Positions 25,127 through 64,000 of a DNA stretch of 64,000 nt are shown here, in pieces. The notes under the pieces are model-generated. The model made no database searches. It was not told the origin of the DNA and saw nothing but the letters and a program-made list of their open reading frames with translations. Source of the DNA: Octopus vulgaris. Lineage: Eukaryota. The stretch spans positions 12,772,001 through 12,836,000 of the forward strand of contig OX597822.1 of assembly GCA_951406725.2 (NCBI GenBank), given 5' to 3'. Positions within the stretch are counted from its first letter, which is position 1, and every line of letters begins with the position of its first letter. A program made the translations under genes and the position numbers.

Positions 25127-25900
25127 TATAAACATTCTATAATTATAAACGTAATAGGCGCAGGAGTGGCTGTGTGGTAAGTAGCTTGTTTACCAGCCAC
25201 ATGGTTCCGGGTTCAGTCCCACTGCGTGGCACTTTGGGCAAGTGTCTTCTACTATAGCCTCGGGCCGACCAAAGCCTTGTGAGTGGATTTGGTAGACGGA
25301 AACTGAAAGAAGCCTGTCGTATATATGTATATATATATGCGTGTGTGTGTTTGTGTGAGTTTGTTTGTCCTCCTAGCATTGCTTGACAACCGATGCTGGT
25401 GTGTTTTATGTCCCCGTTACTTAGCGGTTCGGCAAAAGAGACCGATAGAATAAGTACTGGGCTTACAAAAGAATAAGTCCCGGGGTCGAGTTGCTCGATT
25501 AAAGGCGGTGCTCCAGCATGGCCGCAGTCAAATGACTGAAACAAATAAAAGAGTAAAGAGTAAGAGTAATAATAATTAGGAGCCAGCTAATTGCTTCACC
25601 ATACACCGAATTTAGAAATAGGAGTTTAAAATTCCTTTTCTACAATCGTAAGGATCTCCCAGGCATTAACACTTTTTTACGTAGGCAAAGAGAAAAATAA
25701 TGAATCAACAGACTCTGATTAGCCACAGACGCGTTTCGAAATTAAAGCATTTAATTTACTTATTTCCCGATGCCTGCGTAAAAAAGGGTGTTACTGTCCG
25801 GGAGACTCTTGCGGTAGTAGAAAAGGAATTTTAAACTCCTATTTCTAAATTAGCTGACTCCTAATTGTAATTATGTTTATAATTATAGAATATTTGTATA
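25127..25900. repeat. Older inverted repeat (~130-bp arms); left arm interrupted by a SINE A
   Basis: 25127-25155 plus 25571-25687 are the reverse complement of ~25770-25900. The spacer holds the HHR half gaaacgcgtc on the minus strand. Confidence 0.8.
25157..25565 (+). mobile_element. SINE family A, full length and young
   Basis: ggcgcaggagtggctgtgtggtaag (box A), ggttcagtccc (box B), internal TA/TG microsatellite, tail aaatgactgaaacaaataaaagagtaaagag. Confidence 0.93.
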
Positions 25901-41463: not shown

Positions 41464-41880
41464 AGGCGCAGGAGTGGCTGTGTGGTAAGTAGCTTGCTAA
41501 CCAACCACATGGTTCCGGGTTCAGTCCCACTGCGTGGCATCTTGGGCAAGTGTCTTCTGCTATAGCCCCGGACCGACCAATGCCTTGTGAGTGGATTTGG
41601 TAGACGGAAACTGAAAGAAGCCTGTCGTATATATGTATATATATGTATATATGTATGTGTGTGTGTGTGTGTGTGTGTTTGTGTGTCTGTGTTTGTCCCC
41701 CTAGCATTGCTTGACAACCGATGCTGGTGTGTTTACTTCTCTGTCACTTAGCGGTTCGGCAAAAGAGACCGATAGAATAAGTACTGGGCTTACAAAGAAT
41801 AGGTCCCGGGGTCGATTTGCTCGACTAAAGGCGGTGCTCCAGCATGGCCGCAGTCAAATGACTGAAACAACTAAAAGAGA
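41464..41880 (+). mobile_element. SINE family A, full length
   Basis: Near-identical to 25157-25565. Confidence 0.93.
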
Positions 41881-59939: not shown

Positions 59940-60863
59940 ATATGGGCTAGATTGATTTGTTGCGCTAATCTCTTCAGGACAGTACCCCGTCATGGTTGTA
60001 TTACAATGACTAAATCATGTAAACGCTAAAAGAGCTAACAGTACGGAAAACAGACCAGAATCCCGTGACCGCCATATTTACTTTTAATCATATATCTTCT
60101 TTGATAATATTACGCGAAACAAACACAATGACAACAGCAAAAAACGTACAAATCCCAATTCGTTTCTCGTATCCATTAAAAGTAAACCTCACATGGTGAT
60201 TAGCCGAAATGTGAGCCTATTACTTTAGGCGACGAATACTTACTAGGAATTTCTGTTTCAAATGTGATTATCTTCCAGACTGCGACATTAACCGTGGCGT
60301 TACTGTGTTTTTTTTTTATAAACAGCCGACCTTCTTTGCAAAAGTCTGAGCACAGTGGATCTGTTGCCAATCTAGGTGGAGTCGGGTACGTTTCAGTTTG
60401 ATATTCAAAATTTATTCACTAGGATGTGCGCAGACTCCCTCGACGGTGTCGACTCCCACCAGCTCTCCATTTGTCTTTTCTTTTTTCTTTTACTTGTTTC
60501 AGTCATTTGACTGCGACCATGCTGGAGCACCGCCTTTAGTAGAGCAAATCGACCCCGGGACTTATTCTTTGTAAGCCCAGTACTTATTCTATCGGTCTCT
60601 TTTTGCCGAACAGCTAAGTGACGGGGACGTAAACACACCAGCATCTGTTATCAAGCAATGCTAGGGGGACAAACACAGAGAACACAAACATACACACATA
60701 CATATATATATATACATATATACGACAGGCTTCTTTCAGTTTCCGTCTACCAAATCCACTCACAGGGCTTTGGTCAGCCCGAGGCTATGGTAGAAGACAC
60801 TTGCCCAAGATGCCACGCAGTGGGACTGAACCCGGAACCATGTGGTTGGTTAGCAAGCTACTT

Positions 60864-63097
60864 TATTTCAAATCATTTGCCATAAAGGCAGTACACAGAT
60901 TAAGTTAGCTTTGCGGGCTGGACGAGGACATTAATGAGGTGAATGATAATGAAAGAAAGATGATAAGGATGGGAAAAGACAGAAAGCGCCCGCTGACTTT
61001 TGCTTCTCTAAAACATTGTTCTTTTTAAAAAGATAAACACAAAACGAGGTATTAAACCTCTTACAATTTTTCCAATTTTTGGACTTAGCAGTCCATTATT
61101 AATACAAAACGAGGTATTAATCCTCTTACAATTTTTCAATTTTTGGACTTAAGTCCATTACTAATAATACATATCGTCCTCGAAATAGCTTGTGCCCGCG
61201 CCCTCCACCATCAACCACGCCTCCCTCAGAACGTAGTCAAGTTCCGAGTTCGCGTCGCCCGGGACCAAGTTATAATCTTCATTGAGCTCCTTTAGCCCTA
61301 GCGTCATGTCGAACGCCACGGCCTCCACAGTTACCTGCGGAGGCCATTCGGGGTCCTGTGTGAAGGCTAAAGGTGCTCCCTTGTAGTGCTCTTCCATCAC
61401 TTTTTCAATTTCTCCTCCTCTATAGAAGAGGACCAATACATTCAGTTCTTTCGTTGGCGGCACAGTTTCCGCCAACGGTATTCCTTCTCTTGTCGGTGGC
61501 ACAACCCCAACCGACGTAGTTCCGCGACATTCCGGTGCTACACTGACAGCCGGTAATGTCCCGTTTTTCTTCCTCTTTTTCTTTTTTTTCCTTTTCAGCT
61601 GAGGGAGGGTGCGTCTCCTCCGTGGCTGGAAGATTCGCCTTCCTCTCCTCACCCCTATTATCCTTTGGTGAGCACCCATTGTTGCTCACCTTCCTCTTTC
61701 GGCCTCTGTTTGAGGAGTCCTCTGCTTTCTCGGCCGTTATCGTTCCCTCTTCTAGAGGGGTTTTACTTAACTGTTCCGGGATCCTATTTTGTTCCCGAGG
61801 ACAGTTCTTCTTTATGTGGCCGGACTCCAAGCACCGATGACACTTAGGGGGGCGACCCTCAAGCATCACCGGGTACCTGCACCCGGCCATTTTCATAAAA
61901 ACTGGAAGAACCAGATTGGCTGATTGGGTCCACAGGGTCAAAATTGCTTTTGACCCAACCCAAGCAGCCGCAGGAAGAACTTTTACATTGAGGAGCTTAG
62001 TTTCGCTGTCACCCAGACCCCGGCGGATAGTCTCCTCTATCCACTCGGGTTCTATGTCGGGTGGCAGTCCGCAGATCCAAGCTTTCATCAACTTCTTTTT
62101 TTGTACGTGGGCAGGAATAAGATTTCCTTACCCTCCAAGGGTTTGCTAGCAAATTTGCAAGCCTCTTCAAGGGTGTCAAACAGCAACCACACCGTTGCAT
62201 ATTTGACACCCCTGGAAATGAATTTAATTTTTGGCAAATACTCTTCCAACTCCTTTTCAATTGCCGTCTTTTCGAATAGGGCGATGGTGTCAAGTGCCTT
62301 GGAGTAGGTTCTCAACACCACCGTCCTATCTTCACGGTCTTTTAACCACTTTTTGGGTGGTATGATTTCCCACTCCAAAATTTTGTTATTTTTCATTGCC
62401 ATGTTTTTTTAAAAATATATTCAAATTAAACTCAAAAGCAGGAAGAAAAAGTTCAAAAGTCCAAATAAAATTTGATAGATTTTTGAAAAAACAAAAAGGA
62501 GAAAGCACAACAGAAGGGAAGAAATTAACAGAAAGTCGCAATAAAGAAAAAAAACAAAAGGGGGGGTAAATGAAGTTCAAAAGAAAGTTAATAAACAGAA
62601 AAAACACAGCAAAAATATTCTGGCCTTGCGGTACTCCCGGCCTGGGTGGAACATGGAACGCCGCAACTGCAACACAACCTCCACAAAAATGGGTCCGAAA
62701 GGTAATCCAATAGTGGCTTATTTTTATAATTTTCTTGCGAAGTACTCTGACAAGGGAATAAATTCAACAAACCCAAACACAGCACTGGCTACCGCCAACG
62801 GTAATTTTAACAGTAACTGTATTGAATTCTGAGGATACGCCCCTCCACTGTTTTTTCTTTTTTTTTTCAATGAACACAAAAACGGCAGCCGCCGAGAGCA
62901 GGTGAAATTGTCTCAGAGTTGGACACAACCTACTGAAATAATAATTGGCACGCAATAAATTATGCCCAACTCACAATAAACAAAATCACTTACCTCGACA
63001 ACTTTCCGTTTTGGTCTTTTTTCTTTAATTGGACAGAGCTGATTGACTCACGTCCACTCTGGCTGAACAGGAATTAGCTGACTAATTGCGCATGTGC
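60864..63097 (-). mobile_element. ORF1-only non-LTR retroelement (L1/Tx1-like, HAL1-type architecture), 2.23 kb, 15-bp TSD
   Basis: TSD gttagcaagctactt at 60849-60863 and 63098-63112. About 700-bp 5' UTR, one gag-like ORF, ~300-bp 3' UTR ending gaaata(aa). No RT or endonuclease. Confidence 0.85.
61161..62402 (-). pseudogene. Zinc-knuckle ORF1/gag-like protein (~410 aa) broken by two compensating frameshifts
   Basis: Track ORFs 62402-62088, 62091-61420 and 61679-61161 join; the first and last share a frame. Motif YPVMLEGRPPKCHRCLESGHIKKNC is a CX2CX4HX4C knuckle typical of L1/Tx1-type ORF1p. Confidence 0.8.
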
Positions 63098-63485
63098 GTT
63101 AGCAAGCTACTTACCACACAGCCACTCCTGCGCCTGTGTAGATCTCCATTAAAACCCGTCCTCGTTTCCAGCTTTTGATAACAAATCCTTTATCGTTGGT
63201 AAACCAGCCGACACATGGCACTGCTTTTCTAGTGCTCTAATTTCTTCGAGACCGAAAAGCAGAATATTTATGCAGTTACAGAAGTAGAATCCTTTGTTTA
63301 ACTCTGCTAAAAGCACGTCCACGTTGATCAGTAATGATTAATAATGATTAATAATACAATACCGGGAAGAGTCTTTTCACTCCCGACAACAGAAAGGAAC
63401 ACACAATGCCGTACACACCCCAGCAACAGGGAGGTGCAGCAGGGGATGCAGTAGAAATTTGCCTGAAACTAAAAAATGTTGAACA

Positions 63486-63543
63486 ATGATGATGATGATG
63501 ATGATGATGATCGCGGTGGTGGTGGTGGTGGTGGTGGTGGTGG

Positions 63544-63574
<31 letters not shown>

Positions 63575-63810
63575 GGTGATGATGATGATGATAGCGGTGG
63601 TGGTGTTGGTGGTTGTGATCGTGATGAGGATGATGGTGATGATGATGATGATAGCGGTGGTGGTGTTGGTGGTTGTGATCGTGATGAGGATGATGGTGAT
63701 GATGATGATAATAGCGGTGATGATGATGATGATAGCGGTGATGGTGTTGGTGGTTGTGATCGTGATGAGGATGATGGTGATGATGATGATGATAGCAGTG
63801 GTGGTGGTGG

Positions 63811-63858
<48 letters not shown>

Positions 63859-63915
63859 CGACGATGATGGTGGTGGTGGTGGTGGTGGTGGTGGTGGTGG
63901 CGGCGGCGGCGGCTA
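63486..63915. repeat. (GAT)/(GGT) microsatellite with three higher-order ~60-bp units
   Basis: gatagcggt(g/a)..ggtgttggtggttgtgatcgtgatgaggatgatggt recurs at ~63590, 63650 and 63731. Confidence 0.9.
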
Positions 63916-64000
63916 TGACGATGTTGATGATGCTGAGGATTCCAGAGTTGCGTAGCCCTACAAGGGCTAACAATCCTGATGTTGATACAAATATAACCCA

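Follow-up and report, generated by a model that had tools for sequence, protein, structure and literature searches.

HAL1 elements of mammals are non-autonomous, encode ORF1p only, arose several times, and long retained their coding capacity, as excerpts of two accounts describe them (PMC5753468, PMC3627910). Non-autonomous LINEs in which ORF1 is present are listed for the L1 (HAL1), Jockey (HeT-A), and CR1 (Ag-Sponge) clades in the excerpted text of a further source (PMC5786205). Target specificity is documented for the Tx1 elements, with Tx1L in Tx1D, Keno in U2 snRNA, Kibi and Koshi in microsatellites, and Tx1-Mar together with SINEU in Mariner-N4 (PMC4494074, excerpt). The SIDEs of R2 and R1 are site-specific non-autonomous elements that use the 3′ recognition of their helper (PMC3414825, excerpt), and the association of cDNA with the upstream target has been discussed for R1, R2, and L1 (PMC6895275, excerpt). 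For Octopus vulgaris, a repeat annotation reports 13 recently active L1-Tx1 families, and the words "target," "nested," "non-autonomous," and "ORF" do not occur in its main text (PMC13282606). No paper on a SINE-targeting Tx1 element or an ORF1-only Tx1 derivative was found in the literature searched.

Here we analyzed a 64,000-nucleotide stretch of the O. vulgaris genome (the window) and searched the whole assembly (2.8 Gb, 227 contigs) for relatives of a 2,234-bp unit on its minus strand. The unit is very probably a young ORF1-only non-LTR retrotransposon inserted at a fixed SINE site and copied in trans, likely by the endonuclease and reverse transcriptase (EN-RT) of an L1/Tx1-type family that uses the same site.

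Structure, copy number, and open reading frame

The ends of the unit at 60864-63097 are shared by 28 full-length copies (94 to 100% identity, the window copy included, two of them in two pieces) among 40 candidates scored out of 3,277, which places a multi-copy family far beyond chance. The other 12 scored candidates match from position 354 onward. The last 22 bases of the family occur exactly 212 times genome-wide, against 0 for a reversed control. The family is young and multi-copy, with at least 212 copies, and has been retrotransposed as a unit. The 2.23-kb size, long 5′ untranslated region (UTR), and short 3′ UTR described in the initial annotation were all borne out, as was the absence of ORF2: there is no trace of it and no space for it within the unit, no continuation into ORF2 in the 30 loci examined, and no ORF2-sized frame in the element among the matches listed. 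The AATAAA-like, A-rich end did not hold up. The terminal GAAATA adjoins the target directly, AATAAA arises solely across this junction (boundary uncertain by about 3 nt), and a poly(A) tail is absent in 30 of 30 loci inspected.

Table 1. Positions of the element, its parts, and the surrounding SINE sequence in the window.
Feature	Position	Strand	Remark
Element body	60864..63097	-	28 full-length copies, ends identical
5′ UTR, 695 nt	62403..63097	-	first ~350 nt exchanged in sister subfamily; putative internal promoter
ORF1	61161..62402	-	intact sisters encode 414 aa; this copy, as assembled, has frameshifts at two homopolymers
Predicted RRM 1, aa 27-98	62109..62324	-	AlphaFold of sister L055; Foldseek
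A7 run, frameshift 1	62096..62102	-	A8 in open copies
Predicted RRM 2, aa 103-181	61861..62097	-	AlphaFold; Foldseek
CCHC zinc knuckle	61801..61842	-	PF00098; sequence
Purine run, frameshift 2	61564..61598	-	35 nt in this copy, against 37 in most open ones
Small α/β C-terminal domain, aa 321-405	61191..61445	-	conserved across ORF1-only families
3′ UTR, 297 nt	60864..61160	-	internal 65-bp duplication at 61033-61144
Terminal ~36 nt	60864..60899	-	resembles 3′ ends of autonomous families (L037, L033); aligned with L032
TGCC-N5-GGCA hairpin	60878-60890	-	within terminal ~36 nt
5′ copy of AAGTAGCTTGCTAAC, TSD-like	63098..63112	-	CTAAC part element-borne in full-length copies
3′ target-site copy	60849..60863	-	begins downstream SINE part
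SINE 5′ head, A-box-like TGGCTGTGTGG	63113..63134	-	10/11 to A-box consensus
SINE remainder, B-box-like GGTTCAGTCCC	60475..60848	-	left boundary approximate; once rejoined, the flanks match intact SINEs at 93-95% identity
Two intact empty host SINEs	25157-25560, ~41465-41870	+	

In the DNA search, 12 copies align solely from position 354 on, and L067 is a mosaic. The first ~350 nt of the 5′ UTR are replaced in the subfamilies L029, L030, L067, L089, L090, and L096, and L089 runs at ~70% and then ~90% identity to L055, an intact sister copy. The motifs GCGCATG(C/T)GC and GACGTG recur right after the leader at the 5′ ends of many ORF1-only families (~63085-63097 in the window); we take them to resemble NRF1 and CRE/E-box sites, and they possibly form an internal promoter. 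Non-coding derivatives of 50 to 370 bp occupy the same SINE site. Those of 50 to 155 bp (L045, L075, L054, L098, L064, L071, and L124) include fusions of 5′ and 3′ parts of ~100 bp as well as 3′-only pieces, and two of the latter, each ~155 bp long, have nearly the same starting point. A further locus, L062 (G000:C1:111116890-111116969), consists of two inverted back-to-back 3′ ends with the target after each. Outside the element, a long GAT/GGT trinucleotide array at 63480-63920 gives rise to spurious low-complexity frames.

ORF1 of the window copy begins with the ATG at 62402 and its stop ends at 61161; two homopolymers (62096-62102 and 61564-61598) split it over three frames. L055 encodes 414 aa, in agreement with the single zinc-knuckle ORF1 of about 410 aa proposed initially. 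Most copies are frameshifted as assembled: when the C-terminal protein was used as the query, 21 of the top 150 matches lay in open frames, which are 416 to 473 aa long. Pfam PF00098 matches the knuckle with an E value of 0.003, slightly below the curated cut-off. The AlphaFold model of L055 ORF1 (9 sequences; mean pLDDT 50, ~55 to 82 in the RRM blocks) comprises two beta-alpha-beta-beta-alpha-beta units, the knuckle, a disordered linker, and a C-terminal alpha/beta unit. Its best Foldseek matches are the tandem-RRM proteins NONO/SFPQ, hnRNP A1/A2, and IMP3 (E values of 1e-4 to 1e-3, low TM). The protein is predicted to consist of two RRMs, a CCHC knuckle, a linker, and an alpha/beta domain, and would act as an RNA chaperone. 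Among 5.8 billion clusters, its sole database homologues come from Octopus sinensis, where two automatically predicted gene models show 65% and 63% identity.

The C-terminal region had been described as acidic, ~140 aa long, and unlike anything recognizable; its structured part is shorter (~85 to 95 aa), and it did stay without a clear match in searches. Modelled alone, this unit reaches a pLDDT of 75, and an alignment of 16 members shows it to be conserved, GG and W being invariant. Pfam returned a single weak unrelated match for the 16 members, the ESM Atlas nothing usable, and Foldseek none at an E value of 0.001, while the best VIA-align score was Z 5.0 (rmsd 5.2, 92 aligned) with many weak ferredoxin-like rows. 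One profile match among 1.84 billion representatives was a repeat protein scoring via 7 summed stretches and was not accepted. The ORF1s of autonomous elements hold a C-terminal domain similar in size, position, and pattern; profile comparisons with it are not significant (E values of 0.74 and 0.16).

A dN/dS comparison, proposed in the initial annotation, found purifying selection on both ORF1 domains. In five subfamily pairs (unfiltered; 5 of 8 pairs, with L089, L096, and the window copy left out), dN/dS is 0.11 to 0.25 for aa 1-205 and 0.12 to 0.25 for aa 320-414, with intervals below 1, and 0.65 to 0.94 for the linker. Changes common to at least 3 of 47 copies give 0.11 (30 synonymous, 11 not) and include no stop, versus 0.50 for private changes (51 synonymous, 87 not; P = 6e-5 against the shared ones); the linker of the 47 copies has no such contrast. 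Since the shared changes are strongly synonymous, ORF1 has been under selection in the lineages that transposed.

The frameshifts of the window copy bear on whether ORF1 matters to its youngest carriers. With the same element and helper, ORF1 could be dispensable in the youngest copies, which would travel as non-coding RNA riders with frameshifts inherited from masters or programmed at A7. Consistent with this, the first run reads A7 in 26 of 30 loci, the shifted frame terminates in a TGATG stop-start overlap, and the non-coding derivatives use the same site. However, the ranking behind these 30 loci was by resemblance to the window copy, and 19 copies picked by position give 11 A8 (in frame), 5 A7, 1 A6, and 2 without a match. 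Deviations at all three homopolymer runs are mostly base losses, and the same is seen in young helper copies. Short-read contigs that bridge the A7 run carry the extra base at full depth in two sets, X7 (195/195, one 243-nt contig) and X11 (72/72), although such contigs pool all copies, many ending inside the run, and are not specific to the window copy. The other sets have it at 995/3,664 (X9), 3,607/21,572 (X2), 2,321/36,853 (X1), and 0/6,529 (X5), and no short-read contig has a deletion at this run. The read check envisaged for both homopolymers covered the run at 62096-62102. Assembly under-calls are likely behind the frameshifts in many copies. Programmed frameshifting at A7 is not favored. 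Together with the synonymous, stop-free character of the shared changes, these results leave dispensability of ORF1 improbable.

The SINE target and the 5′ junction

The ORF1-only family targets GGT^AAGTAGCTTG within an abundant SINE of tRNA-like type. The site lies between the SINE's A box and its B box, with the nick one base past the A box. All 30 loci from a flank-blind search abut AAGTAGCT. When the flank was left free, 100 of 100 3′ ends lie within 1 mismatch of AAAGTAGCTTG (100 of the 212, among the matches listed). Upstream, the neighbor of the 28 full-length loci is the head of one repeat in 25 and the 3′ end of a related element in 3. The empty site has 53,176 exact occurrences in the genome. 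Removal of the element and one repeat from the window restores a repeat of ~400 bp that is 93% and 95% identical to the two intact SINEs of the window, and the Pol III A-box and B-box matches of this short, non-coding host repeat are 10/11 each against the consensus. It is probably a tRNA-derived SINE, an assignment made on its boxes, size, and abundance because Rfam (E value of 10) and ARAGORN recognized no tRNA in it. The SINE population varies at positions 10 to 15 of the site (GCTAAC, GCTTAC, and GTTTAC).

This variation helps to weigh the alternative that a composite SINE moves as a whole, with the insert as cargo, so that no site-specific endonuclease would be needed to account for the constant flanks. 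SINE sequence does stand on both sides of every copy, and the 5′ 15-mer is family-specific. The 3′ target copy, however, varies just as the SINE population does, 5′-truncated copies of many lengths start from the same nick with their own duplications, and unrelated families and tandem arrays occupy the site. The insertion moreover leaves the A and B boxes 2.2 kb apart. A composite SINE is accordingly a most unlikely vehicle, and site-specific insertion of the ORF1-only element into the SINE is preferred.

The initial annotation read the repeat flanking the element as an exact 15-bp target site duplication (TSD). The direct repeat is indeed exact (60849-60863 and 63098-63112), but it is not a copy-specific TSD: the same SINE site flanks every copy, and the 5′ copy is partly element-borne. 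Many copies share the expected ORF1-3′ UTR junction, and, as the family inserts site-specifically into the SINE, their TSDs are not distinct. Since the two 15-mers of the window copy are identical, the evidence on the 5′ copy comes from its sisters. Among 19 full-length copies called as this family whose 3′ target is not GCTAAC, 16 have a discordant 5′ CTAAC and L015 alone is concordant, the remaining 2 being members of other families. The same discordant 5′ pattern is seen in 5 of 5 helper copies, and a sister subfamily carries a 5′ variant of its own. The truncated copies L064, L071, L072, L075, and L124 agree with the local target, and other truncated copies have duplications of 7 to 10 bp. 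In L003 the true duplication is followed in tandem by the element's version. The simplest reading, we infer, is that a target-like leader on the RNA guides the joining of the 5′ end. A family-specific 5′ "TSD" of this kind is evidence, drawn from genome sequence, that homology guides 5′ joining, which of all steps in LINE integration is the least understood. It is also a caution that, where an element is targeted, an exact TSD may have been encoded by the element itself.

An autonomous family at the same site and the ancestry of the ORF1-only lineage

A looser junction pattern has 677 matches genome-wide and 0 in a control. Of the first 100, 3 are copies of the ORF1-only family; the other 97 junction loci divide into 23 with ORF2, 50 with ORF1 only, and 24 with neither. 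L032 represents an intact autonomous element of 5,455 bp, with an ORF1 of 467 aa and an ORF2 of 1,133 aa that holds Exo_endo_phos, RVT_1, and zf-RVT domains and has human L1 ORF2p as its nearest solved structure (E value of 8e-67). Its family has 113 exact 3′ ends, and 98 of 100 lie at the same SINE site, among the matches listed. The initial annotation had suggested looking for an autonomous L1/Tx1 element with shared termini; in this family the 3′ terminus is related and the target is the same. Its two ORFs, AP endonuclease, reverse transcriptase (RT), C-terminal zinc finger, TSD, and target preference correspond to the anatomy of Tx1; it appears to be L1/Tx1-type, the Tx1 label being taken from this anatomy.

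The DNA that the ORF1-only element has in common with this family is restricted to the last ~36 nt, where blastn aligns 36 to 37 nt at 84 to 86% with L033 and L037; L032 itself has no blastn match to the element, and its end aligns solely in the multiple alignment. A TGCC-N5-GGCA stem with a variable loop is retained there, and this terminal segment with its hairpin is likely the recognition signal of the RT. The two families are of similar age, with nearest-neighbor distances of 0.7% (helper, n = 13) and 0.5% (ORF1-only, n = 47). Because both use the same SINE site and have related 3′ ends, the 5.45-kb autonomous family is likely the helper, and the shared target, 3′ end, and age point to mobilization in trans by its ORF2. 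The initial view of an independently evolved, non-autonomous L1/Tx1 derivative gains support from the copies, the same-target autonomous family, and the selection on ORF1.

Elsewhere in the genome, sister autonomous families end in AATAAAGAAAT and use other sites, e.g., (TATC)n. The 3′ ends of the young autonomous relatives L156, L158, L160, L171, L172, and L175 adjoin (TATC)n microsatellites in the manner of Kibi and Koshi, and head-to-tail arrays of autonomous relatives with ~5.3-kb spacing occur at L161, L163, L164, L173, and G000:C5:29180411-29207462.

A cycle can be proposed from these data. An internal promoter would yield an RNA that starts with the target-like leader AAGTAGCTTGCTAAC, and the element's own ORF1 protein, with its two predicted RRMs and zinc knuckle, would coat this RNA. 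The helper ORF2 would then bind the hairpin-bearing 3′ end of ~36 nt that both families have, nick the SINE at GGT^AAGTAGC, and prime reverse transcription. The cDNA would end in the complement of the leader, which could anneal to the staggered top-strand overhang and close the 5′ junction; full-length copies would in this way show the element's version of the "TSD" and truncated copies a true duplication of 7 to 16 bp. Insertion would part the A and B boxes of the SINE and regenerate the target, and such regeneration would produce tandem arrays.

The origin of the lineage was examined with a quick tree (37 rows) and a careful tree (19 rows, near-copies excluded), both unrooted. ORF1-only families at the SINE site range from ~33% to 100% identity to L055. 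A long branch (100/100) sets them, together with the O. sinensis protein, apart from three SINE-targeting autonomous families, and constraining them to join the helper ORF1s gives a weak rejection (p-AU of 0.041, with a long branch). Helper and ORF1-only ORF1s are 29% identical, and no DNA match to the helper extends beyond the 3′ tip. The search for an autonomous parent with a close ORF1 covered the 23 junctions that carry ORF2 as well as 20 other autonomous loci. Its best-scoring ORF1 belongs to L157 (37%), whose locus has no SINE target over the stretch examined. By these comparisons the ORF1-only lineage does not appear to be a simple deletion product of the present helper. On an unrooted tree with a branch of this length, the result suggests a separate origin or a helper switch. 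The autonomous parent may be extinct or unsampled. That the unit arose just once, when an autonomous element lost its interior, or that it is the processed pseudogene of some host gene, would agree with its one ORF, direct repeats, and lack of introns, but is refuted by copy number and selection: there are hundreds of copies with identical junctions, the ORF1 is homologous to retrotransposon ORF1s, its ORF1-only relatives reach down to that ~33% identity, and the only database homologues are the two O. sinensis gene models.

We tentatively raise a further possibility, which we regard as somewhat doubtful. The ORF1-only elements could be an old self-standing lineage that never derived from the present helper, kept its own selected ORF1, acquired the helper's 36-nt 3′ tag, outnumbers the helper about 2:1, and uses an element-borne target copy as a 5′ annealing leader. 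If so, these elements would be parasites of a retrotransposon which in turn preys on a SINE via the splitting of its promoter, and the first natural system to pair a cis-acting ORF1 and a trans-acting ORF2 from distant lineages.

A second ORF1-only family (L176-L187, ~1.7 kb) was also observed, with an open frame of 473 aa in L180 (G000:C14:53074401-53078463). Its members have duplications at unrelated sites, are often tandem, end in AATAAAGAAAT, and are not SINE-targeted. This family is separate on the tree, and a common origin with the SINE-site ORF1-only families is not rejected (p-AU of 0.31). Among other loci, L194 adjoins, ~1000 to 1500 upstream of ORF1, a putative histone H3 start, which we presume from the pattern, and L188 and L191 have a common flank with a TATA-like motif.

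Comparison with known systems

Like HAL1, the octopus family encodes ORF1p only, is multi-copy, and has an ORF1 kept by selection. Mammalian L1 and HAL1 ORF1p is of the coiled-coil type, and HAL1 has a poly(A) tail. The octopus family, in contrast, resides in a mollusc, has an RRM-RRM-CCHC ORF1, targets strictly a single site, lacks poly(A), has a short structured 3′ end in common with its helper, and does not appear to be a plain deletion of it. It works like HAL1 but is not HAL1 in the strict sense, because its host is an octopus, its ORF1 is of the CCHC type, and no poly(A) was seen in any of the 30 loci.

HeT-A is target-restricted to telomeres. HeT-A and Ag-Sponge belong to other LINE clades, whereas the octopus family targets a site within a dispersed SINE, apparently opened by an endonuclease. 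Both likewise live outside mammals and are thought to use the proteins of an autonomous partner, as the excerpted text has it (PMC5786205), so the initial description of the HAL1 type as mainly mammalian does not extend to ORF1-only elements as a whole.

With the Tx1 elements, the octopus families have in common an L1-related EN-RT, multicopy targets including transposons, tandem insertions around the TSD, and a non-autonomous passenger deduced from a common target (PMC4494074, excerpt). In contrast, no SINE is among the targets given there, and SINEU, the passenger, is non-coding. The octopus specificity is 98 to 100% at one nucleotide, among the matches listed. The SIDEs differ in being non-coding and co-transcribed with 28S rRNA, whereas the octopus family keeps its protein; at the 5′ junction, the difference from R2 is that the octopus homology sits inside the duplicated target.

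Young and present in many copies, the family is a natural test case for the retention of ORF1 by a non-autonomous LINE (a cis requirement), one that pairs a non-cognate helper ORF2 with non-coding mini-derivatives as controls. It also extends the range of targets known for AP-endonuclease retrotransposons to a SINE promoter, with a near-absolute single-site precision that is relevant to studies of target recognition and to site-specific insertion tools. ORF1-only elements and target-specific Tx1 elements are separately known; the octopus combination of an ORF1-only passenger, single-site targeting of a SINE, and an element-borne 5′ leader did not turn up in the literature searched.
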